Positions 1 to 31,196 of a stretch of 64,000 nt of DNA are shown one piece after another. Every line of letters begins with the position of its first letter. The first letter of the stretch is position 1. The notes under the pieces are model-generated. The model was not told the origin of the DNA and did not search any database. It saw only the letters and a program-made list of their open reading frames with translations. Both the position numbers and the translations under genes were made by a program. Origin of the DNA: an uncultured bacterium (GTDB lineage: Bacteria > Patescibacteriota > Patescibacteriia > Magasanikbacterales > GWA2-37-8); assembly GCA_937903605.1 (NCBI GenBank), contig CALCZC010000016.1, positions 3,183 to 67,182 on the forward strand. Direction: 5' to 3'.

Positions 1-279
1 TAGAATGATCGATGATAAAACGGTCTGGAGATGGAATGTATTGTGCAGAAGGGCCATCATAGAATGGCAGCGGTGCATTCTGAATTACGACCGGGACGGG
101 ATGACCATTCATGTTGAAGCAATAGTATGAGTGCCTTGATCCTCCATCCCAATATGATTGTAGGTTCATAGGGTTGTCTGAGATTTCCACACGGATTTTG
201 TTGCCGTTATAATCGATGAGAGATGCGAATTTAGTGAAAATGGGTTGAGATTTATCGAGATAAATTGTCATTCTACTAC
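1..279 (-). CDS. hypothetical protein, partial (runs off window start); ATG at 277-279 preceded by GGAGG
   Basis: Reverse-complement translation from 279 is open to position 1 with no stop; SD GGAGGTAG sits 5 nt upstream. Confidence 0.45.
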
Positions 280-552
280 CTCCATTTTATTTTTATATTT
301 GTTGTAAAAAGATTTGATGGTGAGATGAGATCTCTTGAGGTATTCTTTGATTTGATCCTCTAAATCTCCACCTCTACCAACGCAACGATTATGATTAATA
401 CACCACAAAGAATCCCATGAGGTATTGTTGTCTAAATAAAAAGACAGAAATAGTCTATTATTAATTCCCTTGGCGTTGCACACTTGACAGGACCAAGGAT
501 ATTTTTCGACATAAACTCGATATCTTTGCCCGCCTAATTTTATAGTTTTCAT
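268..552 (-). CDS. small Cys/His-rich protein (CxxC ... CINHNRC), possibly HNH-like nuclease or Zn-binding
   Basis: Start trimmed to MKTIKLGG because AGGAGG lies 7 nt upstream; Cys/His motif spacing is only weakly HNH-like. Confidence 0.45.
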   Translation of the reverse strand: MKTIKLGGQRYRVYVEKYPWSCQVCNAKGINNRLFLSFYLDNNTSWDSLWCINHNRCVGRGGDLEDQIKEYLKRSHLTIKSFYNKYKNKMEVVE

Positions 553-723
553 GTTACTCAACCTCCTTTCTCGATAAATAAACGTCATGACCTTTATTAA
601 TGGCGTTAAGTATAAACTTTTGAGCATCCACAAAATTAGACACCTTAGATGTTTCGCCAGAATATGAATCGGTTATTTCAATCACCTTATTAGATTTAAC
701 AGCGTCGATATTTAACATAATTA

Positions 724-1095
724 TCACTCCTTTTTGTCAAAATTAAAAAGACAGTCTAACGTTGTGCCAGGGCGGATGTTGCATAACTCGATAGTATAGT
801 TGTAATACTCGTGTATAGCGATGCCATGCTTATGAAGGATGGCCTTAGCGTGGTCTTCATCTTTGGCCAGTACACAGAGATTATCTAAACCATCGCCACG
901 TTCCATGTCGGACACACGGCTAAATTGGTATAACTCCCACTGTGAGATGTTTCTGACGACTTCCATGTCTGTTTGAGTATCGACATTTAATGGCTTATAA
1001 TTGACGCCGAAATACTTAGCAAATTTCTCGGCATATTCTTCTTGGCTAAACAAATGAAATGAACCATCTGGGCATAAAACTGAATATACTTGCAT
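724..1095 (-). CDS. hypothetical early protein
   Basis: ORF with AGGAGG SD when start is trimmed to MQVYSV; lies in a co-directional packed operon. Confidence 0.5.
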   Translation of the reverse strand: MQVYSVLCPDGSFHLFSQEEYAEKFAKYFGVNYKPLNVDTQTDMEVVRNISQWELYQFSRVSDMERGDGLDNLCVLAKDEDHAKAILHKHGIAIHEYYNYTIELCNIRPGTTLDCLFNFDKKE

Positions 1096-1096
1096 T

Positions 1097-1321
1097 TTAA
1101 ATGGCCTCCTTTTTCGTTGAATAACGAGCCGTATTTTTAATGAACTCATCGAGATCGTCTTCGTCTACGATATCGAAATCCGATAAACATGGGTCTATCG
1201 GAACGATTTCGAAGATATCCATGGCCTTTAGAAACTGATGGGCTACGTCTAACTCGACGCGAACGGTATAATAGCCTATAGACTTCATGACCATGTAATA
1301 AATCCATATCCTTCCGTTCAT
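1097..1321 (-). CDS. hypothetical acidic small protein
   Basis: ORF with AGGAGG SD; stop/start abuts neighbouring genes. Confidence 0.5.
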   Translation of the reverse strand: MNGRIWIYYMVMKSIGYYTVRVELDVAHQFLKAMDIFEIVPIDPCLSDFDIVDEDDLDEFIKNTARYSTKKEAI

Positions 1322-1323
1322 AA

Positions 1324-1596
1324 TTACTCCTCCTTTAAAACGAGATTAAAAATGCGAGCATCGTCTGCCGGCTCGATATAGTCGAGACCACGATATCCGT
1401 CAACGGCTGAAGATATATTATGAAATAAGCCTGCATATAGTTGAAGAGATATGTCGTCTATATTTTTAGATAATATTATCGATTCAGTCTTTTCGAGAAT
1501 ACGCTCTATGTGCCATCGAGATAAATTTATAGATGATAAATCGGGAAACAAGTCCTTAACCACATGGCACTCTTTACGGTTTAATTCGATATTCAT
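1324..1596 (-). CDS. hypothetical protein
   Basis: ORF with AAGGAGGA SD. Confidence 0.5.
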   Translation of the reverse strand: MNIELNRKECHVVKDLFPDLSSINLSRWHIERILEKTESIILSKNIDDISLQLYAGLFHNISSAVDGYRGLDYIEPADDARIFNLVLKEE

Positions 1597-1598
1597 GG

Positions 1599-1886
1599 CT
1601 ATTCCTCCTTTAAGTATTCGGCTCTTTCTTGGAGCCAGTAATATTGTTCTTCTGATAACGGCCCGTCTTTTGGGACGTTAAAAGTGTTATTATAGAACCA
1701 ATAATGAGCACTTATATAATATGCGTCTTTACCCCTTACCTTCAAAATGCGATAGTCTGGACGGTCATACTCTCCATGACGAAGTGTATAGTTGCCGCCC
1801 TGTTGATAACGGATGATGTTATTTTTGTCTTTAAAAGATGTAAAGCCAGCATCTCTTAGAAGTTGCTGGAGATATTGTTTTTTCAT
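1599..1886 (-). CDS. hypothetical protein (start trimmed to MKKQYL)
   Basis: AAGGAGGG SD lies 6 nt before the ATG at 1886; a terminator hairpin sits just upstream. Confidence 0.5.
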   Translation of the reverse strand: MKKQYLQQLLRDAGFTSFKDKNNIIRYQQGGNYTLRHGEYDRPDYRILKVRGKDAYYISAHYWFYNNTFNVPKDGPLSEEQYYWLQERAEYLKEE

Positions 1887-1897
1887 AAATGCCCTCC

Positions 1898-1937
1898 TTA
1901 AAATTAAAAACCGCCACCACATTATTGTGATGACGGT
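1898..1937 (-). terminator. rho-independent terminator (11-bp stem with 2 G-U pairs, loop AAUAAU, U-run)
   Basis: Minus strand reads ACCGUCAUCAC-aauaau-GUGGUGGCGGU followed by UUUUUAAUUUU. Confidence 0.55.
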
Positions 1938-2076
1938 CTATGTTATTTTATAGCCTTAATCGCAGCGGCTAAATAGTCAGCAAAATTAGACGGTGCAGAT
2001 TTAACCGTCTTGACCTTGGTGGGTTTAGGTCTATAAGGCTGGTCAATTGCCTTAATGACCTGGGATATGGGTTTAA

Positions 2077-2298
2077 TCATTCTTCGACCTTTATAACCCG
2101 AATCTCTTTCGAGAAAGGGTTGAAGTCAGCCTTTATAAAGGCAGTCTGATTGATAAGACGTTTGGCCATAGAAAGAATGGTCCTGTCTGTCGATTTTAAT
2201 GACATGGCACAGCCAGGGTCAGTCATGTCGTGCCACTGCTCGATTATGAAAGAGTCTTTTGATACATAAGTAATTTCGGCCTTGATGTTGATTAACAT
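2077..2298 (-). CDS. hypothetical protein
   Basis: ORF with AGGAGGCAAT SD. Confidence 0.5.
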   Translation of the reverse strand: MLINIKAEITYVSKDSFIIEQWHDMTDPGCAMSLKSTDRTILSMAKRLINQTAFIKADFNPFSKEIRVIKVEE

Positions 2299-2318
2299 AA
2301 TTGCCTCCTAATTGCCTC

Positions 2319-2603
2319 CTAGAATTTTATCGGAACGTTATATTTGCAGTTGTCGCGGTGGCACGACGATAGGAGTCCCATCGGAAAGCACATTCCGCAG
2401 GGTTTGTCGCGTTCGGGCGCGATATACTGTTTTACACCGGCCCTGTCGTTGTAGAATACATGGTATGTATTCCACTCCGCGTCAAATTCTGTCCCGACAG
2501 TTATGTCAGGAGGGACAATCATTAGCAGACAGTTTTCAATGATACGTGCTTGGTTGCGCGTCTCAAACATTTTTGACAGTTTGATATCGGTTGTAGTCTT
2601 CAT
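2319..2603 (-). CDS. hypothetical protein
   Basis: ORF with AGGAGG SD. Confidence 0.5.
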   Translation of the reverse strand: MKTTTDIKLSKMFETRNQARIIENCLLMIVPPDITVGTEFDAEWNTYHVFYNDRAGVKQYIAPERDKPCGMCFPMGLLSSCHRDNCKYNVPIKF

Positions 2604-2642
2604 AATTACCTCCTAAGTTTAAAGACATTTCGGTCTATTGGA

Positions 2643-2897
2643 TTAATTGTTTTTAACGAGTCTAACAAGTCCCACAGCGCGAGGGCCATATCCAAGGTCG
2701 GGGAACATGTTATTTAATCTGCACGGTGATGTCCTGACGGTCAGGTCTCCGTTGGTTTTGATTTTAGTCTCAAGGATCAAACGAGCCAGAAGTGTCTCGT
2801 CTAATCCTAACTTGTGGACTGATACATAATCGCCCGTCTGATATGCAGTCCATAACATATTAAAAGCGTTATTCAGTTTGCGTCCAGCGTCTGTCAT
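2643..2897 (-). CDS. hypothetical protein (start trimmed to MTDAGRK)
   Basis: AGGAGGC SD before the ATG at 2897; the upstream part of the track ORF overlaps a terminator hairpin. Confidence 0.45.
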   Translation of the reverse strand: MTDAGRKLNNAFNMLWTAYQTGDYVSVHKLGLDETLLARLILETKIKTNGDLTVRTSPCRLNNMFPDLGYGPRAVGLVRLVKNN

Positions 2898-2919
2898 AAA
2901 ATGCCTCCTATTTATTTTT

Positions 2920-2959
2920 GATATTAAAATGACCGCCACTACATTTCTGTAATGACGGT
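2920..2959 (-). terminator. rho-independent terminator, paralog of 1898-1937 with compensatory stem changes
   Basis: Minus strand reads ACCGUCAUUAC-agaaau-GUAGUGGCGGU then CAUUUUAAUAU; CAC/GUG is replaced by UAC/GUA so pairing is kept. Confidence 0.55.
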
Positions 2960-3074
2960 CTCAAAAGAAAATATAAATCGGTATTTTATCTGTCTGTATC
3001 AATTGCCGATATACCAAAAGATACACGATACACTATTGTATCAACAATCGGATATGCAATTCATAGGTTGCCAG

Positions 3075-3165
3075 CCGTCTTCGCATACCGTCTATTACTA
3101 TTCAGGCAGCAAGGCCCGTCTATCGTCTTCGATTGGTCATTCCAATCCGACCAATAGCCGTCTAT
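3075..3165. repeat. CCGTCTAT iteron-like repeats (3 exact copies at 3088, 3116, 3158 plus CCGTCTTC/CGTCTTCG variants) and 7-bp inverted repeat ATTGGTC/GACCAAT
   Basis: Direct reading; the region 2960-3360 has no minus-strand ORF and no SD. Confidence 0.5.
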
Positions 3166-3479
3166 GCTAACCGTCGAGCCACATCTATTGTGGACTTCCC
3201 CATCTATCTTAAAACTGCAATGCAGCAATGATAGAATTATATCGTCTAGTTCCTGTAAGGGCGCAAGCGTATCAACCAGGCGGATTACTCAGCCGTCCAG
3301 CGGATCGTACAAGCTCGACGATACAACACGGAAAATATATCGAGGTCAATCATCGTGAGTTGGTTTAACACGGTGATATATTTTCCGTTCGCTTGCTTGT
3401 GTGTTTTATTTTTTTTTTTACACAAACTTACTTGCAACACAAACTAATACCCATTAGGTATTGTTTGTTTGCTTATTTC

Positions 3480-3745
3480 GCGCCCGTCTCTTATTGGCCC
3501 ATTTTTTCACTGCACCTGAGCTTTATCGCCCTGTTACAAGCCGCTTGTGGTAACCATAGTGGTTAGCACTAAGCGGGTCGTAACCCTCATTGCAACGCCC
3601 CTTATAATCGAGGTAGGCCAGTCGGCCGACTGGCTATATAAAAAAGCTACTGGCCTAATAACTTTGCGTCCCATCCGGCCTTGATGGAACGCCTATTTTA
3701 CGCCGCCCGCCCCGTTACAAGCGGGCCGGCGTGATATTGGTTTTT
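3480..3745. other. GC-rich structured noncoding segment with two GTTACAAGC-containing hairpins and an 18-bp perfect palindrome GCCAGTCGGCCGACTGGC at 3616-3633
   Basis: Local GC is far above the window average; hairpins at 3533-3560 and 3696-3730, the latter followed at a distance by T6. Confidence 0.4.
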
Positions 3746-4056
3746 TAGGCGTCAAATTTGACGCCGTCACGGGCGATATAGCTCGGATCCGTCAGGTAAC
3801 GGATTAACCTCGTCCGTGTTGTCTGTTTTCCGGCTTTGTTTGCCGCTTTAATAGCGGCGTTGTTTTCTGCGATGGAGATTTTCAGCTCGGCCCCTGCTAA
3901 GACCTCGTTAATCTCGAGACCGAAGGCCCGTTTGAAAAAATAACTCATGGAGGGCGCGCCCATTAATACGCCCTCTCTTGCTGCTGATACAGTAATCCCA
4001 GATGTCTTTAATTCTGTGATTAACCCCACGACCCTTGCTAATTCTGCTTTTTTCAT
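3745..4056 (-). CDS. HU/IHF-like histone-like DNA-binding protein, divergent (arm region shortened)
   Basis: N-terminal MKKAELARVVG and C-terminal FG.EI..V....ELKISIAENNAAIKAANKAGK match the HU pattern MNKxELI...GFGxFEV...GEEIEIPA..VPAFKAGKALKDA; GC is about 48 percent versus about 33 percent around it; AAGGTGGA SD. Confidence 0.35.
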   Translation of the reverse strand: MKKAELARVVGLITELKTSGITVSAAREGVLMGAPSMSYFFKRAFGLEINEVLAGAELKISIAENNAAIKAANKAGKQTTRTRLIRYLTDPSYIARDGVKFDA

Positions 4057-4109
4057 ATTGTTTCCACCTTTGCTTTTAATTTCAACGGTTTTGCCCCGCT
4101 GATATCTTA

Positions 4110-4138
4110 ATTATACCATATACCCATTTTATTGTCAA
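4110..4138 (-). promoter_or_regulatory. consensus sigma-A promoter for the HU-like gene: TTGACA-17-TATAAT with TGn
   Basis: Minus strand reads TTGACAataaaatgggtatatggTATAAT. Confidence 0.55.
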
Positions 4139-4582
4139 GTTATTTTTTTAATCATGAAACATATTGATTTTATTGCCATTTTCGGCATATTTTATTAATC
4201 AATTTTAAGTTTTTTTTTAAATATCTTTAAAAATTTAACACGATTTATTGACAACAAATAAATTTTATTGCAATTCAATTAATACTTTACATGATTAATA
4301 AATAAATAATTTATGATCCTGATATTATAATCCAGGCGCGGCATATCACAATATAATATATTAGCGTTATTGGAGATTGCAGTAGAATGAGCGTGTTTCA
4401 GACAGGGGAGTTTGTAATAGGCTGATTTTGCAGGGCAAGACGGGGGCTTAACAGTTCATCTTTACACGTGGCCCTCTTTTTCGAACCACCCTATCCGATA
4501 ATATTCCTTGCATATGCCCACACTTTCATTATCTCCCTACAGCCATAAACGTTTTGCCACATTTATCGCAATAACACATCTA

Positions 4583-4658
4583 TAAAAGTGCATGAAATGA
4601 TGCAGTGTTATTGTCTATAAATTATACTCAAAATATAAAAGTGCATGAAATCATGCAC
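4583..4658. repeat. two copies of ATAAAAGTGCATGAAAT(G/C)ATGCA 52 bp apart; second copy is a perfect 8+8 palindrome GTGCATGA-aa-TCATGCAC
   Basis: Direct reading; operator-like. Confidence 0.5.
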
Positions 4659-4675
4659 ATGTATATATAGTATAT

Positions 4676-4733
4676 GTTGCAAATTGCAACATCGACATTG
4701 CAAAATGCAACATAATACAGTTACATAATGTAA
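4676..4733. repeat. cluster of short palindromes GTTGCAAaTTGCAAC, TTGCAaaaTGCAA, TTACATaATGTAA
   Basis: Direct reading. Confidence 0.5.
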
Positions 4734-4778
4734 CGCAGAATCTTCTAAATTATCTAAACTCTTAAAATATGCATGTGG

Positions 4779-4851
4779 TAATTATCGTTTATCTTACCGA
4801 AACATTAATAAAGCGCAGCGTATTAATGTTGAGGTATAGTAAACGATAATT
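4779..4851. repeat. 73-bp nested inverted repeat: outer 12-bp arms AATTATCGTTTA/TAAACGATAATT enclosing inner 10-bp arms AACATTAATA/TATTAATGTT with symmetric 9-nt internal spacers
   Basis: Direct reading; no flanking T-run, so it is not a simple terminator. Confidence 0.55.
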
Positions 4852-4860
4852 GGGGTCGAT

Positions 4861-5110
4861 ATAGGGAGGTTATGGAAGATAGGCAACGCCATAGGTAAAT
4901 GGCAGGAAATAGCGTTATAATAGCGTTAATAAGGCCATAAATAAGGTAATGTAAGTATATTGAATAGTAACTGAATAGGAAGTGTATAGGTAAAAGAAAA
5001 GATGCTTAGAAATAGAAAATAGCCCTGTAAGGAGCGTAACAGAGCTATCTTCTTAGGAGGCAATCACCGTAAACAACAACCGAGAGGAAAGATGAATCTT
5101 AGGAGAAAAC
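4861..5110 (+). repeat. purine-rich tract (plus strand) with about 12 ATAGG/ATAAGG/ATAGCG motifs, several spaced about 11 bp; includes tandem ATAGCGTTA x2
   Basis: Direct reading; no ORF of 60 aa or more on either strand. Confidence 0.4.
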
Positions 5111-5191
5111 TAGATCTTCATCGAATCAATTCTAATCATAACATATAAAATTAGATATGTCAACAGTGATTAAAAAATAGACAAAGTTATT

Positions 5192-5443
5192 TTATTCTCC
5201 ATTGCTATTAATATAGATTACTTTTATCTCTTCGCAGGATATAATTAGCTCTCCGCCTTTGCCATCTATAAATATTCCTAAACCTGGACTAAGAGTTTCG
5301 CAGAATTTAAAATGCCATGTATCGTAGCCATCGTTATATAATAATGAATGATGATCGTTGACAGAATCAAGTTCTTCTTCTGTCTTTGCTGCTATAAAAG
5401 TTTGGATTCTATCTATTGTAACTGATAATTGATCTTTAGTCAT
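5192..5443 (-). CDS. hypothetical protein
   Basis: ORF with AAGGAG SD. Confidence 0.5.
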   Translation of the reverse strand: MTKDQLSVTIDRIQTFIAAKTEEELDSVNDHHSLLYNDGYDTWHFKFCETLSPGLGIFIDGKGGELIISCEEIKVIYINSNGE

Positions 5444-5445
5444 AA

Positions 5446-6012
5446 TTACTCCTTCATCAATGTAATGGTTTTGGGCTGTGGTTGGCTGGGAATAAACCTT
5501 ATATTTATCTCAGACACCGTGCGAGTATATCTTTCGGATGGAAGAGAATCAAACAAAATAACCCAACTTGTGTTATCCCTATTTAATTCCATGCTCGCCA
5601 TCATCTCGACAATACCTTCTCTTAAATTATTTGCCGCCTCAATAGCAGCATCTTCTTGAAGTCTATTGATAAGTTCGAACTCACGTAAAACCATATTCTC
5701 AAAACTTCCAATTTTCTGAAATATACTGCCCCGAGTAGAAAATAATTGAATAACTCCTAAAACTGTTTCATCTCTTTTATACCCAGTATAGGCATACTTC
5801 TTACTATTATCTGGACACTTATACTCCCAATTATAATATTTAGGTATAGAATCGGATTCCATTTCATTTTCTTCAATCTCCAGATACTTACAGATATAGA
5901 GATGATAGCAATATGGGTTAAAGGCAAGGAATATATCCATATAATTCAATTTGGAGTAAATAGTTTGAAAAAACATATTCGCGTTCGTTTTAATCTTTTC
6001 TTTAAAATCCAT
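5446..6012 (-). CDS. hypothetical protein (188 aa)
   Basis: ORF with AAGGAG SD. Confidence 0.5.
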   Translation of the reverse strand: MDFKEKIKTNANMFFQTIYSKLNYMDIFLAFNPYCYHLYICKYLEIEENEMESDSIPKYYNWEYKCPDNSKKYAYTGYKRDETVLGVIQLFSTRGSIFQKIGSFENMVLREFELINRLQEDAAIEAANNLREGIVEMMASMELNRDNTSWVILFDSLPSERYTRTVSEINIRFIPSQPQPKTITLMKE

Positions 6013-6029
6013 TTAAAATACTCCTTTAT

Positions 6030-6401
6030 CTATTTCATTTTCTTTCTATTGACATCTAATAACTTCTTTAACCCTGCCTTAGTTAACCCTTGATTTAATA
6101 CATTGCCTGGGAGAGGTGTTGAATAATAGCTGACCCACTCCCCTCTTTCTGAATTATTAACTGATATATGCAAAGATATAAACTCAGGGCTTATATTTAA
6201 AAATACTATATCTGCTATGGACTCGCTATCTCTGAAGTTTTTCGGCAATAACTTTTCGGAATCTTCAACATATTCAAATCTAACTCCTAATTCTTGTAAT
6301 AGTTCGATTCGTTCAAGAACATTAAATAAAAGAATGTTTTCAAGCGTATGCGCTGATTTTCTAAGATGTTGCAGCAATTTAAGCATTTCTATTGTGTGCA
6401 T
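6030..6401 (-). CDS. hypothetical protein
   Basis: ORF in the operon; weak SD. Confidence 0.45.
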   Translation of the reverse strand: MHTIEMLKLLQHLRKSAHTLENILLFNVLERIELLQELGVRFEYVEDSEKLLPKNFRDSESIADIVFLNISPEFISLHISVNNSERGEWVSYYSTPLPGNVLNQGLTKAGLKKLLDVNRKKMK

Positions 6402-6636
6402 TATTTTTCCTTTCGTAATACTTATTTAATTTAAACAGCTTTTTAATTGGTAGTTTGTTAAGATAATTTAGATCGATGTTGTTATTAAAAGATGCTATAT
6501 TCTGTATTAATTCCTGTTTCTTATTGCCTTTTACATTATCGTTGATATATTTAAGTCTTTTAAATGCTGCGTTAAAGTATTCTCTAAACTTGGGGTCTTC
6601 TAAGTTGCTTTTAAGATATTCATCAAAATCAATCAC
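6379..6636 (-). CDS. hypothetical protein, GTG start
   Basis: GGAGGT SD 6 nt before the GTG; overlaps the downstream gene by 23 nt. Confidence 0.4.
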   Translation of the reverse strand: MIDFDEYLKSNLEDPKFREYFNAAFKRLKYINDNVKGNKKQELIQNIASFNNNIDLNYLNKLPIKKLFKLNKYYERKNNAHNRNA

Positions 6637-6638
6637 AA

Positions 6639-6839
6639 TTATACCTCCACATTCTCAGGTGGCTCTATATGCTTTGATGGCATACAATGATCGGGTAATG
6701 GGCATTTTTCCCCAATTCCTTTATGAATATCTATTTGTTCATTAGTTTTTGAACATTTGTGATTAAACTGATATCCAATACTAAAGTAAGCAAATGGACA
6801 ATCTCCACATTTTTCAACTATCATCTCAAGTTTCTTCAT
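6639..6839 (-). CDS. small Cys-rich (CGDC ... C ... C) protein
   Basis: ORF; Cys spacing suggests metal binding. Confidence 0.4.
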   Translation of the reverse strand: MKKLEMIVEKCGDCPFAYFSIGYQFNHKCSKTNEQIDIHKGIGEKCPLPDHCMPSKHIEPPENVEV

Positions 6840-6848
6840 ATTTGCTCC

Positions 6849-7031
6849 TTAAAACTTTTTAATGGCCTCGTTTAATATTTCTTTGTAGTCTTCGTATAGT
6901 GCCTTATATAGTTCCTTCATCATCTTAAGTTCTGCCATTGCCCTTGCCGGCGTTATTGATCTGCCTTCTTTGGCATATATAAACTCTTCTATTTTATCTG
7001 CACATGAATCAAATACCTCAGTTGTTTTCAT
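6849..7031 (-). CDS. hypothetical small helical protein
   Basis: ORF. Confidence 0.4.
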   Translation of the reverse strand: MKTTEVFDSCADKIEEFIYAKEGRSITPARAMAELKMMKELYKALYEDYKEILNEAIKKF

Positions 7032-7033
7032 GT

Positions 7034-7252
7034 TTACTCCTTATCATTTAACCAATTAGTAAACGCTGCTTTAAATTGACATATGCAGTCAGCATATAGA
7101 AAATCATGATTATAATGAGCGTCTTCATTTCTACAATCTTTAATCCCTGCTACAAACATTTCTGGGTTAAAGTGACATGTTTCGCCGTAAGGGATAGACA
7201 TAAATTTATTGCACGCCACCTCACAACAAGCGTCTTTCCAAGTTCTATTCAT
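7034..7252 (-). CDS. Cys-rich small protein
   Basis: ORF with 8 Cys in 72 aa. Confidence 0.4.
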   Translation of the reverse strand: MNRTWKDACCEVACNKFMSIPYGETCHFNPEMFVAGIKDCRNEDAHYNHDFLYADCICQFKAAFTNWLNDKE

Positions 7253-7451
7253 CGTGGGCCTCCTCGGCGATAGGCTCTAACTTATGCAATTTATGAATAC
7301 GATCGCCATAACATCCCGATAATTTATTGCCACACATCGGGCAATAGAGAGTTCCTGGAGAATTAAGATGTTGCCCACCGTAGTCGCTAAATGTTCCGTG
7401 AAATTTAGATTTACATGCTTGACATCTAAAATTGGTCGTATATACTTTCAT
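7245..7451 (-). CDS. zinc-ribbon protein (CxxC ... CxxC)
   Basis: CQAC ... CPMC motifs. Confidence 0.45.
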   Translation of the reverse strand: MKVYTTNFRCQACKSKFHGTFSDYGGQHLNSPGTLYCPMCGNKLSGCYGDRIHKLHKLEPIAEEAHDE

Positions 7452-7828
7452 TTCCCCTCCTCGCTTTCTCTGCGCTGGCCCGCAGAACAGAAACTCAACA
7501 AATCAACTTCGCCAATGGCCGAATATTTAATTTCTTCATCACAGGCGCCGTCGTTCCAAATACAATCTTTGCAATAAACAACCTCCGGCCTCTTTTCCAG
7601 CTCGGCTTTGAGGCGGGAGATTTCATGTTTGTAGTATATTATTTCGTTGTTCAATGCACCGAAAGTTTCGGCAAGTCCAGAATTGGCTTTTTCTAACCGC
7701 TCAATCTCTGCGTCAATCTGCTCTACTGCCTTGGCAACTTTTTCTTGTATTGGCTTTCCGTCATCCACCTCATAATATCCATATAACAAATGTAAATATT
7801 TTTTAATTATCTCAAGGTCTTTGTTCAT
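7448..7828 (-). CDS. coiled-coil protein with C-terminal Cys cluster
   Basis: Heptad-like E/K-rich region; CKDC ... C. Confidence 0.45.
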   Translation of the reverse strand: MNKDLEIIKKYLHLLYGYYEVDDGKPIQEKVAKAVEQIDAEIERLEKANSGLAETFGALNNEIIYYKHEISRLKAELEKRPEVVYCKDCIWNDGACDEEIKYSAIGEVDLLSFCSAGQRRESEEGK

Positions 7829-7903
7829 TTATATAGCTCCTCATATATCCATTTATGCTCGGATAGCTTGGCATTCTCTTTTTATTCTTTTATTATCTTT
7901 GTT

Positions 7904-8398
7904 TTATCGTTTATCCCATGATATATCTAATAAAAAGGCATCGTCCTTGGGCGACAAGGCAATGGTATATCCCTTTTTGATAAGAATATTTAAAAATTCT
8001 TGCATAATTGAACTTTGTTGAGTTTCAGAATGGATAACGACAGAATAGGAATCCCTTCCAACTGAAGCAAGATGTTTAATTTTTTCAGAAATCATCAAAC
8101 AAAGATCTATGACACCCTTTTCGTTTGCCTTAGTTGCGATTTCAAAAGATTCTTTTGCTGATTTGAGGTTTATAAGATAATTTTTCATTATTATTGCCTC
8201 CTTAATATGGTCATATGCACTTACTCTTGCTTCACTAAGTTTTTCCTTTAACCGCTCATTCTCATCTGCCATTGCCTCTGCATTGGCCATAACAACATCC
8301 CAAAGGACAGGAACAAACAAAAGATAGAAATCGCCATCTTCCTGGTCCCAAACTTCCATAGGCTTATTGTCTTTGATTTGTTTAAGATAATCGTTCAT
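7904..8398 (-). CDS. hypothetical coiled-coil protein
   Basis: ORF. Confidence 0.45.
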   Translation of the reverse strand: MNDYLKQIKDNKPMEVWDQEDGDFYLLFVPVLWDVVMANAEAMADENERLKEKLSEARVSAYDHIKEAIIMKNYLINLKSAKESFEIATKANEKGVIDLCLMISEKIKHLASVGRDSYSVVIHSETQQSSIMQEFLNILIKKGYTIALSPKDDAFLLDISWDKR

Positions 8399-8406
8399 AA
8401 TGCTCC

Positions 8407-8697
8407 TTAAATCTTAATCCTACATGAAATATAAGTTACAAATTTAGTTTTAGTATTTTTAAACCTACGAATATCAGATGCCACTGGAATGCCTATATTA
8501 TCTTTTAATAGACATTCTAAGTGCAAAGAAAGAGCCTCTCTTGCCATCCTAATGCCATGAGGCAGGCTAAGGCCATAAGTGAAGATGCCTCCACCATCTG
8601 CTTCAAGGTCAGGAAAGCGAATATAAAACCCTTGCTCCTTTCCTGCTTTGTATTCAGTAAATTCCGCTGGATAGATAAACTGTTTAGTTTTTGCCAT
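8407..8697 (-). CDS. HicB-like / UPF0150 antitoxin-fold protein, with no adjacent HicA
   Basis: YPAEF ... GFYIRFPDL ... AREALSLHLE ... IP matches the HicB N-domain signature; AAGGAGCG SD. Confidence 0.5.
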   Translation of the reverse strand: MAKTKQFIYPAEFTEYKAGKEQGFYIRFPDLEADGGGIFTYGLSLPHGIRMAREALSLHLECLLKDNIGIPVASDIRRFKNTKTKFVTYISCRIKI

Positions 8698-8721
8698 AAG
8701 TAATCACGCTCCTTAATACTA

Positions 8722-8750
8722 ATCTTAACACATCATAAAAAGAATGTCAA
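8722..8750 (-). promoter_or_regulatory. sigma-A promoter TTGACA-17-TAAGAT (TGn) for the leftward early operon
   Basis: Minus strand reads TTCTTGACATTCtttttatgatgTGtTAAGAT. Confidence 0.5.
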
Positions 8751-9217
8751 GAAAATTCTTTTAATATTTTAATAAAGCCGAGACGAATGTAATGAGGCCG
8801 GCTAATGGGCGTAGCAGCGGAATCATTACAGTATGGCTATGCTATTCAAAACACTAATAAACACTATATTGATACTAAAATTAATTAAATGTCAAGAAAT
8901 ATTTATGCTTAATTTTTATACAGTATTTTTAAATAGATTACTGAGGGAAAAGAAAAATAAAAATATCCCCCGACATCCATGAGACGAGCGCGAGCGAGCG
9001 AATGGATGTTAAACATGATCTTACGGATAAACGGTAATGTTATTCTTTTGTGTTTTAAGAGGCATTAGTTTAAAGATTCGATAAAATGCTCATTTAAAAT
9101 ACAAAATCGTTTTTAGATACGTTTCTGATTGTTTTAGAGGCAATATAAATATTATTTCGGATATAAGTATAAGAGATATGATATATGATTATGATTGAGT
9201 TTATTACGTTACATAAT

Positions 9218-15590: not shown

Positions 15591-15664
15591 TCCGAATTGC
15601 CCGACTTGAACGGGCGGCCTCCTGGACCCAAACCAGGCGCTCTGGCCAACTGAGCTAAATTCGG
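15591..15664 (-). tRNA. tRNA-Pro (anticodon UGG), 74 nt, no encoded CCA
   Basis: Cloverleaf folded by hand: acceptor CCGAATT/AATTCGG, D-stem GCTC/GAGC, anticodon stem CCTGG/CCAGG with loop TTTGGGT, T-stem GCCCG/CGGGC with loop TTCAAGT, discriminator A. Confidence 0.85.
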
Positions 15665-15689: not shown

Positions 15690-16000
15690 AACATTTATCA
15701 GTAAATATTTATAAGTTTGCGAAGGAGGGCAAACAAATTATAAATAACCCTATTTTAAGTTTGGTCGAGGGGCCAAGACGACTACTCTTGGCTTCTAACA
15801 AGAGCTACTTGTTCGCATTCACATGTCTTTATGCTACTCCTCGATTTTTAAAGCAAGCGCGGCTGGAATCGGACCAACATTGGAGGAACCAAAACCGTCC
15901 CATCAAACTTATGAAAATCGTTTTAAGTGACTTTCTGTTGATTTCGCACTTCATCCAGACTGCGGTTGGACTCCATAGGATTCTCTCGTCTTACATTCTG
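15690..16000 (-). ncRNA. candidate TnpB omega-RNA (reRNA) region: 3' end of tnpB plus downstream right-end region; guide expected just 5' of the tRNA
   Basis: Positional inference from the known IS200/IS605 TnpB architecture; boundaries not determined. Confidence 0.3.
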
Positions 16001-17125
16001 TCCATGCGCGTTAATTCCCGTAGAACTTACGGTATAGTAATCCCTTATATTCTTTGAAGCATTCCAATCCCTGTTATCAATGTTTCCGCACTTCTCACAG
16101 TTATAAACTCGTTCATTCATTCCCAAAGTTTCTTTTACATTTCCACATTTATTGCATGTTTTAGAGGACGGATAGAAGCGTGGAACTTGAGCTAAAAGGA
16201 TTGAATTCCATTCAGTTTTATAACTGAGCTGTCTCCCGATTTCCGATAGGGAACTGTCGGCTAATGCTTGGGCTAACTTATGGTTCTGCATCATATTCTT
16301 TAAAGATAAATCTTCCATCATTATTACGCTTGGTTTGGTTTTCACTAAGCTCGTAGTGATTTTATGAAGATTATCCTTACGGGTATTGGATATTTTATAA
16401 TGAAGTTTTGCTACCCGTTTCCTTGATTGTTCTCGGCGGTTACTCCCCTTCTGCCTACGACTTAACTCTCGTTGAAAGCGTTTAAGTTTACGAAGATAAT
16501 ACTTCAATACCTTCGGATTATTAAAGATTTCATTATTGGAAGTATGAATTAGATTAGTAATTCCGAGGTCTATTCCGATGATTTCTCCTGTGGTTTGTTG
16601 TTCTGGGATTTCAAACTCAAAAGAAGTTGATATAAACCAATGCCCTGCTTTCTCTGAGATAACCACTGACTTTATTGGAAGGTTCGGAATGTAATCTTTT
16701 TCCTTTAAACGAATCCATCCAAGACGAGGAAGTTTAATCCTGCCCGATTCGATATGAAAACTTCCGTCAAGGTAGAATGAATTGGAACTTTTATGTTTGG
16801 ATTTGAACCTTGGAAATCCGGCTTTAATGCCTTTCTTCAAATCGCGGAAGAAGTTTTTGAATGCTCTGTCTACATTTCTTATCGCTTGCTGTGGAGCGCA
16901 TTTACTAACTTCATACATCCACGGAAATTCAGTTGCCTTCAATTCATTTAATATTTTATGCTGTTCAATGGGTGAGATTGATTTCTTTTCGGATTCATAA
17001 AGTTTAATTCGCTCATTCAATGCCCAGTTATAAGTAAATCGTGCCGTGCCCGAATGCTTTTTCAGTAACGTTTTTTGTTTATTATTCGGTTTCAATTCAA
17101 CCTTATAACTTTTGGATATCTTCAT
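15923..17125 (-). CDS. tnpB: TnpB (IS605 OrfB-family RNA-guided nuclease), catalytic triad apparently intact
   Basis: N-terminal KVELKPNNKQKTLL ... ARFTYNWAL; RuvC-I IGIDLGITN; RuvC-II MEDLS; zinc finger CNKCGN ... CEKCGN; RuvC-III NRDWNASKNI. Confidence 0.85.
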   Translation of the reverse strand: MKISKSYKVELKPNNKQKTLLKKHSGTARFTYNWALNERIKLYESEKKSISPIEQHKILNELKATEFPWMYEVSKCAPQQAIRNVDRAFKNFFRDLKKGIKAGFPRFKSKHKSSNSFYLDGSFHIESGRIKLPRLGWIRLKEKDYIPNLPIKSVVISEKAGHWFISTSFEFEIPEQQTTGEIIGIDLGITNLIHTSNNEIFNNPKVLKYYLRKLKRFQRELSRRQKGSNRREQSRKRVAKLHYKISNTRKDNLHKITTSLVKTKPSVIMMEDLSLKNMMQNHKLAQALADSSLSEIGRQLSYKTEWNSILLAQVPRFYPSSKTCNKCGNVKETLGMNERVYNCEKCGNIDNRDWNASKNIRDYYTVSSTGINAHGQNVRRENPMESNRSLDEVRNQQKVT

Positions 17126-28114: not shown

Positions 28115-29034
28115 TGAGAACCAATTACTTAACCAAAAGCGAAATCGCTAACGTAGAAAAAGTTATGGCGTCCCTTAAAAACGTCGTTAAAGACGCAGAT
28201 ACCGCTTCGTATGACGAACTGGTAAAAGCCGGCACGTTTGTAGTTAATGACTATATCGCAGAGAACCCCTCGCTGCTCGACCTTAGCTCGTTACTGTTTA
28301 ATCCTGGTCAGGTCAATGGCGACGTTCTTGATGTCGAAATCGGACATGGCGGCGTAGCGTACATGCATGCGATTGGTTCGCAGGCTGTACTGTCTCAGGC
28401 TTACATCGAAAGAGTTTCGACGAAAATGAACCGTTTTTCGTTCGCAAGCAAAATCGATGTTAACGCAGTTCGCACTCAGAATGTTGTAAAACTTCTGGAA
28501 GACGCTGCTGAAATCAGATTCAAACTTGGTCTGAAGAAATTCAGATACATATGGGACCTCGTAAAAGCTACGATAACCACTGGCGACCCGATATACATTT
28601 CGGCTGCTACCGTTAACAAAACTAACCTCGACTCGATAATGAACACTATGATGGACACTTCGGGTTCGGTTAAAGCGATAATCGGTCGCGAATCGCTTGT
28701 TACCCAGATAATGGGCTTCAGCGGATGGTCGGAAGTCACCCTGCGCGAAATCGAAACCGGCGTATTCGGTCAGTATCGTGGCGCTCGTCTCGTTGGTATC
28801 AAGAACTATGAAACCACCATCGTTGACGCAGCTGGCACCAAATTCGATACGGCTCAGATCCCTGCTGACCAGCTTATACTGCTCGGCGAAAAATGCGGTT
28901 ACGACGGCGAGAACCCCGTTCAGACGCTTGCTGGCACTGACGTTCTCCTCGGCGCAGAAGTAAAAAATACCTTCTTCGATTACGCTGCTATCATAGTAGA
29001 CGAAAAGAAGATAGGCGTTTACAACATCGCTTAA
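28114..29034 (+). CDS. major capsid protein
   Basis: 306 aa, follows the scaffold, strong terminator downstream. Confidence 0.55.
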   Translation: MRTNYLTKSEIANVEKVMASLKNVVKDADTASYDELVKAGTFVVNDYIAENPSLLDLSSLLFNPGQVNGDVLDVEIGHGGVAYMHAIGSQAVLSQAYIERVSTKMNRFSFASKIDVNAVRTQNVVKLLEDAAEIRFKLGLKKFRYIWDLVKATITTGDPIYISAATVNKTNLDSIMNTMMDTSGSVKAIIGRESLVTQIMGFSGWSEVTLREIETGVFGQYRGARLVGIKNYETTIVDAAGTKFDTAQIPADQLILLGEKCGYDGENPVQTLAGTDVLLGAEVKNTFFDYAAIIVDEKKIGVYNIA

Positions 29035-29892: not shown

Positions 29893-31038
29893 ATGTTAAG
29901 AAGTTATAAAACAGAGATAAAGCCGTCAACAGAACAAAGAGAGAAAATAAATCGAACAATTGGAACGTGTCGATTCATTTATAACTTCTTTATAAAACAT
30001 AATAAAGAGCAATATCTTCAAACAAAGAAATTTGTTACCGGATATGATTTCTCAAAATATCTCAATAACGAGTTCATTCCTAACAATCCAGACTTTAAGT
30101 GGATAAAGGAAGTAAGTTCAAAAGCAGTAAAGCAATCGATAATGAATGCAGAACAGTCGTTTAAAAACTTCTTTAAAACGAAAAAAGGATTCCCTAAATT
30201 TAAAAAGAAACATAACTCGATAGTTAAAGTTTATCTTCCTAAAAATAGTGATACTGATTTGTTAGTTGAACGTCATAGAGTTAAAGTTCCAACGTTCGGA
30301 TGGATAAATTTAAAAGAAAAAGGATACATTCCAGTTGATAAGTTAGTTAAAAGTTGTCGTATCGAAAAGAAAGCGAATCGTTACTTCATCTCTGTACTTG
30401 TCGAAACGGGAGTTGAAATCAATTCCTCAAGCAATTCACTGAAGGGCATTGGAATCGATTTAGGGTTGAAAACCTTCGTAACTGTAAGTAATGGAGAAAC
30501 TTTTCCAAATATAAATAAAACAAGAGAAGTTAAAAAATTAGAAAGGAGAATAAAGTCGGATCAAAGGAAATTATCAAGGAAATTGAAAAATAAAAAGAAA
30601 GGAGAGTCTACTAAGAATATAGATAAGCAAAGGTTAAGATTACAGATAGCACATCAGAAACTTACGAACAAGAGACATGATTACTTGAATAAAGTTGTCA
30701 GGTCACTGGCGATAACCAAGCCAGCATTTATAACAATCGAAGATTTGAATGTAAGTGGTATGATGAAAAATAGGCATTTATCTCGCAGTATTGCATCCAT
30801 GAATTTCAGTAGATTTCGTAATCTATTAACCCAAAGGAGTAAAGTTAATTCTTTTGAGTTACGAATAGCAGATAGATTCTTCCCTTCCAGCAAGAAATGT
30901 TGTCAGTGTGGCAATATAAAGAAGGCATTAAGTTTGGCAGAAAGAATTTATGTCTGTGAAATTTGTGGAAACGAAATTGATAGGGATTTAAATGCTGCAA
31001 AGAATCTTGAAAAATTAGAAGTTTATCGAGTCGCGTAG
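29893..31038 (+). CDS. tnpB: TnpB (IS605 OrfB-family RNA-guided nuclease), second copy; about one-third identical to the first; catalytic residues present
   Basis: KTEIKPSTEQREKINRTIGTCRFIYN; IGIDLGLKTF; IEDLNVSGM; CCQCGN ... CEICGN; DRDLNAAKNL. Confidence 0.85.
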   Translation: MLRSYKTEIKPSTEQREKINRTIGTCRFIYNFFIKHNKEQYLQTKKFVTGYDFSKYLNNEFIPNNPDFKWIKEVSSKAVKQSIMNAEQSFKNFFKTKKGFPKFKKKHNSIVKVYLPKNSDTDLLVERHRVKVPTFGWINLKEKGYIPVDKLVKSCRIEKKANRYFISVLVETGVEINSSSNSLKGIGIDLGLKTFVTVSNGETFPNINKTREVKKLERRIKSDQRKLSRKLKNKKKGESTKNIDKQRLRLQIAHQKLTNKRHDYLNKVVRSLAITKPAFITIEDLNVSGMMKNRHLSRSIASMNFSRFRNLLTQRSKVNSFELRIADRFFPSSKKCCQCGNIKKALSLAERIYVCEICGNEIDRDLNAAKNLEKLEVYRVA

Positions 31039-31196
31039 CGATAAGATAAGAATACGGTGGGCTACATCGGAATTTAAGTCTGTGGACTGTTAAAAACCGT
31101 AGTAGATGGAAGCGATTCTTTCGAGGCGGAACAGAATGAAGCAGAAAACAATCTTAATATATTCATTAGTGTCTATATTTTAAGTAGCAGATAATA
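30950..31196 (+). ncRNA. candidate omega-RNA region of the second TnpB
   Basis: Positional inference; 158 nt of noncoding DNA lie between the tnpB stop and the next gene. Confidence 0.3.

Follow-up and report, generated by a model that had tools for sequence, protein, structure and literature searches.

The analysis concerns a 64,000-nucleotide (nt) stretch of DNA, here called the window, which is taken from the reverse strand of ENA ERZ724078 NODE_175, a metagenomic phage contig of ~116.8 kb whose end lies inside a gene, 3467 nt from window position 1. Its subject is an island rich in guanine plus cytosine (GC) at 3360-4060, with a gene on the minus strand for a small basic protein of 103 amino acids (aa). 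A consensus promoter and a leader hairpin precede this gene, and a non-coding tail follows it, with five hairpins named H1 to H5 in gene-strand order from the stop codon. The genes in window 1-9000 are small and lie on the minus strand throughout. The phage is classed as a siphovirus because its contig encodes a 2550-aa tape-measure protein. Its terminase shows distant similarity only to terminases of Bacillus and Clostridium phages, the window has more near-consensus TTGACA-17-TATAAT promoters than expected (8 versus 1.2), and the ribosome-binding sites of its genes read AGGAGG. On the strength of these three features, the host is probably a Firmicute with promoters of the sigma-A/sigma-70 type.

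A first-pass annotation had singled out the island by its composition, and the contrast is real: GC amounts to 46.9% against a window mean of 36.6% (z 2.6), a level reached by 1.6% of 701-nt windows, with a peak of 0.52-0.53 over 3480-3900. The island ranks third in the window, behind 50003-50703 (0.52; end of the tape-measure gene) and 28257-28957 (0.50; a 306-aa gene, function not assigned), which are both coding.

Cassette exchange between related phages

Judged by comparison with related loci, the flagged segment is a swapped, self-contained early-gene cassette set between conserved, putatively cis-acting non-coding frameworks. The comparison drew on the loci of the gene family (L002, L003 and L004, joined by L005 for GC), on L006-L010, reached through 85-90% identical homologues of the 84-aa next gene, and on five IMG/VR contigs, one of 117.7 kb, retrieved with the 2931-2960 hairpin as a DNA pattern. 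Related phages keep non-coding blocks on both sides of the cassette, at 4493-4398 and at about 3390-2894. L011, L014 and L015 align to the non-coding stretches 4861-4741 (84%), 4493-4398 (75%), 3341-3262 (78%) and 2960-2894 (82%). Between the blocks 4493-4398 and 3341-3262, they carry an unrelated promoter, TTGATA-17-TATAAT, and a 185-aa gene, and this alternative unit ends in a canonical terminator and an AT-rich spacer. L013 aligns only at the second of these blocks (3349-3262), its contig stopping short of the first. L009 has a 196-aa gene in this slot, to which the 185-aa gene is 37% identical. The 185-aa gene bears no relation to the 103-aa family and matches no known family. Alignment with the window starts at 2960/2961, the foot of the terminator-like hairpin 2931-2960, in the four of L006-L010 whose contigs extend there; L008, whose contig starts at window 2937, was left out of this count. 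Since relatives hold another promoter-gene-terminator unit between the shared blocks, the flagged island is a replaceable cassette of ~1 kb.

Horizontal acquisition had first been suggested from base composition. It is supported and, owing to the cassette swap, now stands on comparative evidence and not on composition alone: the flanking blocks are shared with relatives and the gene in the slot differs. Cassette GC is 0.48-0.53 against 0.366 for the window, its base composition differs from that of the flanks, and the same contrast is found in L002-L005. In the homologous loci, the promoter is AT-rich, and the gene and the tail behind it, which has no called genes, are GC-rich.

Phage morons, or accessory early-gene cassettes, are promoter-gene-terminator units of foreign composition, a concept that stems from lambdoid phage genomics. 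The present cassette resembles them in its own consensus promoter, single small gene and downstream hairpin or possible terminator, in a GC content 10-16 points above its surroundings and in a mosaic junction bounded by conserved sequence. It differs from them in that an insertion between genes adjacent in relatives is not what is found: in the related phages the slot is filled by a different cassette and not empty, so the event is a replacement. Moreover, the cassette belongs to an early lytic region instead of the late operon of a prophage, the window copy has a non-canonical terminator, and an extra conserved hairpin, H5, is present. The swap illustrates cleanly how phage genomes become mosaic at defined junctions. 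Features of this kind are ordinary for phages; the exception is the one conserved hairpin that travels with the gene.

Hairpins and repeats in a non-coding region, together with a slot that is a recombination hot spot between phages, also recall an attachment site, and the first-pass annotation had considered an attP whose core is shared with a host tRNA or tmRNA gene. This explanation is highly improbable. No integrase or recombinase Pfam family is found on genes within +/-10 kb, ARAGORN and Rfam (even at E<=10) detect no tRNA- or tmRNA-like sequence in 2500-4600, and neither the gene nor the conserved hairpin next to it has a relative in GTDB genomes, so that no prophage copy is seen. Other mobile or recombining elements were also rejected. 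A multi-copy element, either a miniature inverted-repeat transposable element or the IS200/IS605 ends of the two candidate TnpB genes of the window, does not apply, as the tail is unlike anything else in the window. Integron attC-like core sites fail because the GTTACAA/GTAAC ends misfit GTTRRRY/RYYYAAC and are not kept in L002, and an invertible switch built on the flanking inverted TTACAA motifs fails because these match at only 11/15 and their downstream copies are not conserved.

The promoter had been described as perfect, which it is by consensus match: it lies directly upstream of the 103-aa gene, is the sole 12/12 TTGACA-17-TATAAT in the 64-kb window, and has a near-identical counterpart ahead of every homologous gene (L002, L003 and L004). 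The leaders of the window, L002, L003, L004 and L009 (5/5) all fold into a hairpin at an equal position, with stems that differ in sequence.

The 103-aa protein has three relatives among 5.8 billion clustered proteins (1.8 billion representatives), namely P0002 (83% identity), P0003 (54%) and P0005 (38-43%), which come from short metagenomic contigs; nothing further was found in IMG/VR, JGI metagenomes or GTDB genomes. More distant matches (P0004 and P0006-P0010, 432-4786 aa) were judged spurious, with 0 or 3-6 weak matched stretches each: P0004, of 4786 aa, has no matched stretch, and P0006-P0010 scan as repeat proteins with Glucodextran_B-type beta-sandwich repeats. All family members are small and basic, with isoelectric points (pI) of 8.9-9.9. 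The N-terminus of the protein reads MKKAELARVVGL, and a conserved arginine cluster, TTRTRLIR, is C-terminal (residues 79-86). Two AlphaFold (AF2) models are all-helical, with six helices, no strands and predicted local distance difference test (pLDDT) values of 68.6 and 60.4.

The gene had been labelled HU/IHF-like, an assignment that is not borne out. Its N-terminal MKKAEL... resembles the HU start MNKTEL..., the sole sequence resemblance, and the protein is small and basic. However, PF00216 (Bac_DNA_binding) is not matched in Pfam even at E<=1, NCBIfam, PHROG and PDB sequences give nothing relevant, and BLASTP against Bacillus subtilis HBsu gives no alignment at E<=100. The models (pLDDT 60-69) lack the beta arms, and Foldseek finds no fold neighbours, and hence no HU structure, in PDB or BFVD. 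That the gene encodes an HU/IHF-type nucleoid protein is extremely improbable, which corrects the mislabel. The first gene behind the strongest early promoter of a phage typically has a host-takeover or anti-defence function. For this reason, and because a specific hairpin accompanies its gene in the window, L002 and L004, the orphan basic protein is a reasonable target for experiments.

Table 1. Window coordinates of the cassette, its elements and the adjoining conserved features
Feature	Position	Strand	Evidence or remark
Variable (swapped) cassette, ~1 kb	about 3395..4398	-	bounded by non-coding blocks common to related phages
Consensus sigma-70/sigma-A promoter TTGACA-17-TATAAT, extended -10 TG	4110..4138	-	12/12 match
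5'-terminal leader hairpin (core 4082-4102, loop GGCAAAA), then AAAUUAAAAG and Shine-Dalgarno	4078..4106	-	folding
Gene for 103-aa basic protein, orphan family	3745..4056	-	open reading frame; pI 9.85; predicted all-helical
H1, GC-rich hairpin 12 nt past the stop codon, GTTACAAGC in loop region	3700..3732	-	-24.3 vs -20.9 kcal/mol on other strand
H2, 10-bp hairpin	3666..3692	-	-16.5 kcal/mol on gene strand vs -11.3 on other
H3, weak AU-rich hairpin ending in U6	3640..3665	-	-5.0 kcal/mol on gene strand vs -0.6 on other
H4, 18-bp perfect palindrome GCCAGTCGGCCGACTGGC (7-bp stem GCC...GGC)	3617..3634	-	unique in window
H5, 22-bp hairpin, two C.C mismatches 10 nt apart, bulged A, invariant AGUGC	3533..3584	-	co-inherited with gene
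14-bp perfect inverted repeat, 33-nt spacer	3328-3341 / 3375-3388		conserved framework
AGAC[CG]G repeat array, single orientation, consensus ATAGACGG on gene strand	2956..3163	-	further copy 3484-3489
Terminator-like 13-bp hairpin and AUUUUAAU	2931..2960	-	34 nt ahead of next gene start (2897)

The structured tail and hairpin H5

The non-coding tail was given as ~270 bp in the first-pass annotation. It really extends over 847 bp (2898-3744), up to the next gene, which starts at 2897 behind an AGGAGG ribosome-binding site; the GC-rich structured part covers ~270 nt downstream of the 103-aa gene. Hidden coding or recoded stops are rejected as an explanation, since all six frames are interrupted, with TAA, TAG and TGA each occurring, and tblastx detects no conservation. 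The small open reading frame that spans H5 does not keep its frame in L002. Folding of 3470-3745 gives -108.6 kcal/mol for the gene strand (z -4.4 versus shuffles) and z -3.1 for the opposite strand. The gene-strand value, together with one hairpin conserved with compensatory changes, supports the earlier view of the tail as structured. Membership in a known RNA family found no backing: Rfam 15 gives no match at the gathering threshold over 2500-5250, the best being a flavivirus stem-loop at 24.2 bits against a cutoff of 38.3.

Two hairpins had been proposed to share a motif. The GTTACAAGC repeat is present and proves to be a 15-mer, CGCCCYGTTACAAGC, whose copies (3527-3541 and 3708-3722) agree at 14/15 positions; a comparable repeat arises in 1/60 shuffles of the tail, and the GTTACAAGC motif is not conserved in L002, the closest relative. 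One of the two hairpins does not stand as drawn, for 3533-3560 is the 3' half of the 22-bp hairpin 3533-3584, i.e. of H5.

For H1, H2 and H3, the gene strand has an advantage of 3-5 kcal/mol in stability, explained by G.U pairs; the energies of H4 and H5 favour neither strand. A hairpin stands 9-24 nt past the stop codon in L002, L003 and L004, and one also follows the unrelated genes of L009 and L014. A U-run comes after it in three loci (L003, L009 and L014) and gives the L009 and L014 hairpins the form of canonical terminators; the copies of L003 and L009 are clearly homologous. By its sequence, H3 is a possible leaky intrinsic terminator. As with H3, a U-rich tract lies just ahead of the next hairpin in L002 and L004, so that the window and these two loci share the order of a U-rich tract, a short GCC...GGC hairpin (H4) and H5. 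The perfect 18-bp palindrome of the first-pass annotation, confirmed as a single occurrence, forms H4. Its counterparts occupy the same relative place with other sequences, CGCCCCUG-GGA-CAGGGGCG in L002 and GCCGU-CAUCGU-ACGGC in L004.

H5 is the sole element of the tail with real comparative support and represents a candidate new motif. Between the window and L002, 95% of cells are paired, with 4 compensatory pairs and 2 one-sided changes, against 26-43% in slid controls. In an alignment of the window, L002 and L004, made by hand with the structure as guide and scored by script, all cells are paired (56/56) and 9/24 pairs are compensatory. The two C.C mismatches, the bulged A and AGUGC are invariant across the three copies. 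A covariance model built on the window and L002 retrieves the L004 copy as the top L004 hit, on the sense strand and at the same distance from the stop codon. It finds no match in L006-L015 or elsewhere in the window, which indicates that H5 is absent from loci with the alternative cassette. A DNA pattern search for further relatives of H5 found nothing.

The evidence tips by a modest amount towards the tail hairpins acting as 3' RNA elements of an early transcript, serving end formation and protection, with one hairpin for processing or protein binding among them. Transcription by host RNA polymerase would begin at the consensus promoter (4138-4110), and the transcript would open with the 5' leader hairpin as a stabiliser of the kind proposed for Gram-positive mRNAs. 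After the coding part for the small basic helical protein, it would enter the ~270-nt GC-rich 3' region and form H1-H5. H1 and H3 would make transcription slow, pause or end and would shield the 3' end of the RNA. H5 would, with H4 ahead of it, serve for recognition, in the simplest case as an RNase III-type processing or stability site, alternatively as a site for the cassette's own protein. Either role could set the share of transcript that passes the iterons and the 2960-2931 hairpin into the next early genes. From 4110 to the next gene, the gene strand shows no further match to the promoter consensus, which makes read-through from the 4110 promoter plausible. With no intervening promoter and a terminator-like hairpin ahead of the next gene, the fate of this transcript could set the expression of the early genes that follow.

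H5 has the shape of an RNase III substrate, with ~two helical turns, 22 pairs, two single mismatches and a one-base bulge. In the early region of phage T7, RNase III processing hairpins punctuate the polycistronic early mRNA. Classic RNase III sites of B. subtilis are described as a 'relatively stable stem-loop with small internal bulges', and the early mRNA of phage SP82 is a known substrate of the enzyme in this bacterium (PMC4838370). H5 resembles the T7 and SP82 sites in its ~22-bp stem with small mismatches and a bulge and in its location between early genes, downstream of strong host-type promoters. It differs in being single, with no copies between other early genes here, and its invariant C.C mismatches and AGUGC suggest a recognition more specific than RNase III requires.

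Several points weigh against reading the tail hairpins as 3' RNA elements. H1 lacks a U-tract in the window and in L002, H3 is weak and is not called by the terminator scan, and promoter and terminator calls are consensus matches only. The confidence of the protein models is low (pLDDT 60-69). The hand alignment of H5 is biased towards structure and holds only three sequences, and the covariance-model hit in L004 is marginal (11.9 bits, E 0.25). The tail is barely alignable outside the hairpins, even with L002, whose gene is 77% identical at the DNA level; most of it is thus without sequence constraint, judging from this relative with an 83%-identical protein. Finally, as energy favours neither strand, H5 may have its role in the DNA itself, where it would form a cruciform or serve as a palindromic binding site.

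Joint inheritance of a basic protein and a hairpin invites comparison with processive antitermination. In phage lambda, the N/nut layouts are PL-nutL-N-tL1 and PR-cro-nutR-tR1. In an analogous system, the 103-aa protein would bind H5 or the leader RNA and cause read-through of the 2960-2931 and 1938-1910 hairpins into delayed-early genes. As in lambda, a small basic early protein of about 100 aa accompanies an RNA hairpin of its own transcript, the next genes are preceded by putative terminators, and protein and hairpin are exchanged together between relatives. The gene is the first behind the strongest early promoter, the protein is basic across its family, the conserved hairpin has a bulged A and mismatches, and two conserved terminator-like hairpins directly precede downstream genes with no promoter match between, a likeness at the level of pattern. 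Yet the gene strand of 2898-4140 contains no GCTCTT-type boxA, and boxB is much smaller than the hairpin. The protein lacks an N-terminal arginine-rich motif, its TTRTRLIR block being C-terminal; it is predicted to have a helical fold rather than to be disordered, and bears no sequence relation to N or to any other known antiterminator. Furthermore, relatives with the alternative cassette keep the same terminators without H5. An antitermination pair is therefore unlikely.

A broader possibility, to which only a small probability is attached, is that the 103-aa protein and H4-H5 form a co-evolving protein-nucleic-acid pair of an undescribed type, with the C.C mismatches, which lie one helical turn apart, the bulged A and AGUGC as recognition features. 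If so, the pair could represent a new class of early-transcription controllers in phages of Gram-positive hosts, such as an antiterminator or an RNA-stability switch, and the exchangeable slot would be filled in other phages by a functionally analogous, unrelated gene.

H4 and H5 could also constitute an independent small RNA gene or a stable small RNA derived from the 3' untranslated region, acting in trans. The region is structured, and a U-rich tract followed by the conserved H4-H5 module is found in three loci. Nevertheless, no promoter match precedes H4 on either strand, no terminator follows H5, Rfam gives no match, and H4-H5 is found only beside the 103-aa gene, which makes a trans-acting RNA quite improbable.

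The conserved framework beside the cassette

Next to the cassette, the framework at 2931-3390 combines an oriented repeat array, an inverted repeat and a terminator-like hairpin. CCGTCT occurs 23 times in the window against 10.8 expected, with copies clustered at 2956-3163. AGAC[CG]G is present in 5-8 sense and 0-2 antisense copies each in the window, L006 (375-913), L007 (4-320), L009 (1296-1706) and L010 (333-742), against 0.3 per kb in the background. Across these five loci, the motif keeps its sequence and orientation though the DNA is otherwise unalignable. A literature search for the iteron word ATAGACGG returned primer sequences only. By its pattern, the array is a candidate iteron or protein-binding array, at an origin, a pac site or a regulatory site. 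The arms of the inverted repeat differ yet stay complementary in L014 (AAACCATATATC/GATATATGGTTT) and in L009, so that the symmetry or structure of 3328-3388 is conserved.

The hairpin at 2931-2960 is more stable on the gene strand by ~10 kcal/mol (-21.1 versus -11.5 kcal/mol), with G.U pairs explaining the difference. A second terminator-like copy at about 1908-1939 on the minus strand shows one compensatory change (C-G to U-A). In both copies, a 13-14-bp stem, GACCGTCATYACA..AATGTRGTGGCGGT, is followed by a U-run and then by the ribosome-binding site of a gene.

These elements bear on the suggestion that the region is a cis-acting site at the DNA level (an origin, a packaging site or a T5 iss-like site), composed of the hairpins, the inverted repeat and the ATAGACGG iterons, with the small protein as site-binding factor. 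The strict orientation of the iterons, conserved as a motif and not as a sequence, the covarying arms of the inverted repeat, an A/T run at 3405-3420, the perfect palindrome of H4 and the equal stability of H5 on both strands are all in keeping with such a site. However, iterons and inverted repeat lie outside the swapped cassette and are retained by relatives that lack H4, H5 and the 103-aa gene; the flagged hairpins are therefore not needed for that site. In addition, the stability of H1-H3 favours the transcribed strand, no DnaA boxes are found near the cassette, no replication or packaging gene is recognised within +/-10 kb, and GC skew across the window follows gene orientation without an origin-type switch. 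A DNA site that includes the flagged hairpins thus has a low probability.

The first-pass annotation had named a replication-origin component among its options. For the flagged hairpins there is no specific support; what stands of the idea is the iteron array and inverted repeat just outside, at 2956-3390. Going by its repeats, the framework 2931-3390, and not the cassette, is the better candidate for an origin or other cis-acting site. Together with the terminator hairpins, the iterons and inverted repeat may point to an origin or other essential site of an uncharacterised phage group.

A possible parallel is offered by T5-like phages, in which a large untranslated region rich in repeats and palindromes lies among the first genes (Davison, bioRxiv 10.1101/866236). 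The parallel, a resemblance only, extends to a large siphovirus genome of about 120 kb and to non-coding stretches better conserved than neighbouring open reading frames. On the other hand, the present phage has no DnaA boxes in this region, no A1, A2 or dmp homologues, and no sign of terminal repeats or two-step injection. The likeness lies less in the flagged cassette than in the framework at 2931-3390 and 4398-5163 and is only a lead.

The upstream region and outlying features

Upstream of the cassette promoter, 4140-4300 is extremely AT-rich (14-22% GC) and carries three TTTTATTGNCA repeats, which read as the -35-like TTGNCAATAAAA on the gene strand. From their sequence, these repeats may be tandem promoters or operator sites.

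Farther upstream, a conserved non-coding block covers window 4337-4493 on the minus strand and is found in L003 (1-115), L004 (20-75) and L014 (463-557). The distance from a TATTACAAACYCCCCT motif to a GTTA motif is fixed at 33 nt in the four loci. A 28-nt stretch, 4337-4364, has 100% identity to L003 despite proteins that are just 54% identical. A coding explanation for the block was weighed and found inconsistent.

A second strong promoter, TTGACA-17-TATGAT, lies at 5163-5135 on the minus strand and is followed by ~500 nt without a convincing open reading frame, strongly pyrimidine-rich on the transcribed strand. This stretch (4590-5163, minus strand) ends in two near-identical terminator hairpins, at 4658-4641 and ~4607-4590, and includes a nested-hairpin block, 4741-4861, that is 84% identical in IMG/VR relatives. 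It may correspond to a conserved non-coding early RNA; no Rfam match was found.

At the contig end of L006, positions 1-180 form a low-complexity G/A-rich run (GGGGCGGGG, with repeated GAAGCC units), which is probably an assembly artefact rather than biology. Elsewhere in the window, a transposase gene (PHROG phrog_506) at 15923-17125 on the minus strand adjoins the sole tRNA gene, tRNA-Pro (15591-15664, minus strand). A second gene of the same PHROG lies at 29893-31038 on the plus strand and is followed by an Rfam RAGATH-18 RNA at 31079-31147 on the same strand (50.3 bits). Both transposases are presumed to be TnpB-like candidates, and the RAGATH-18 RNA presumably fits the guide-RNA 3' region of an IS605-type element.

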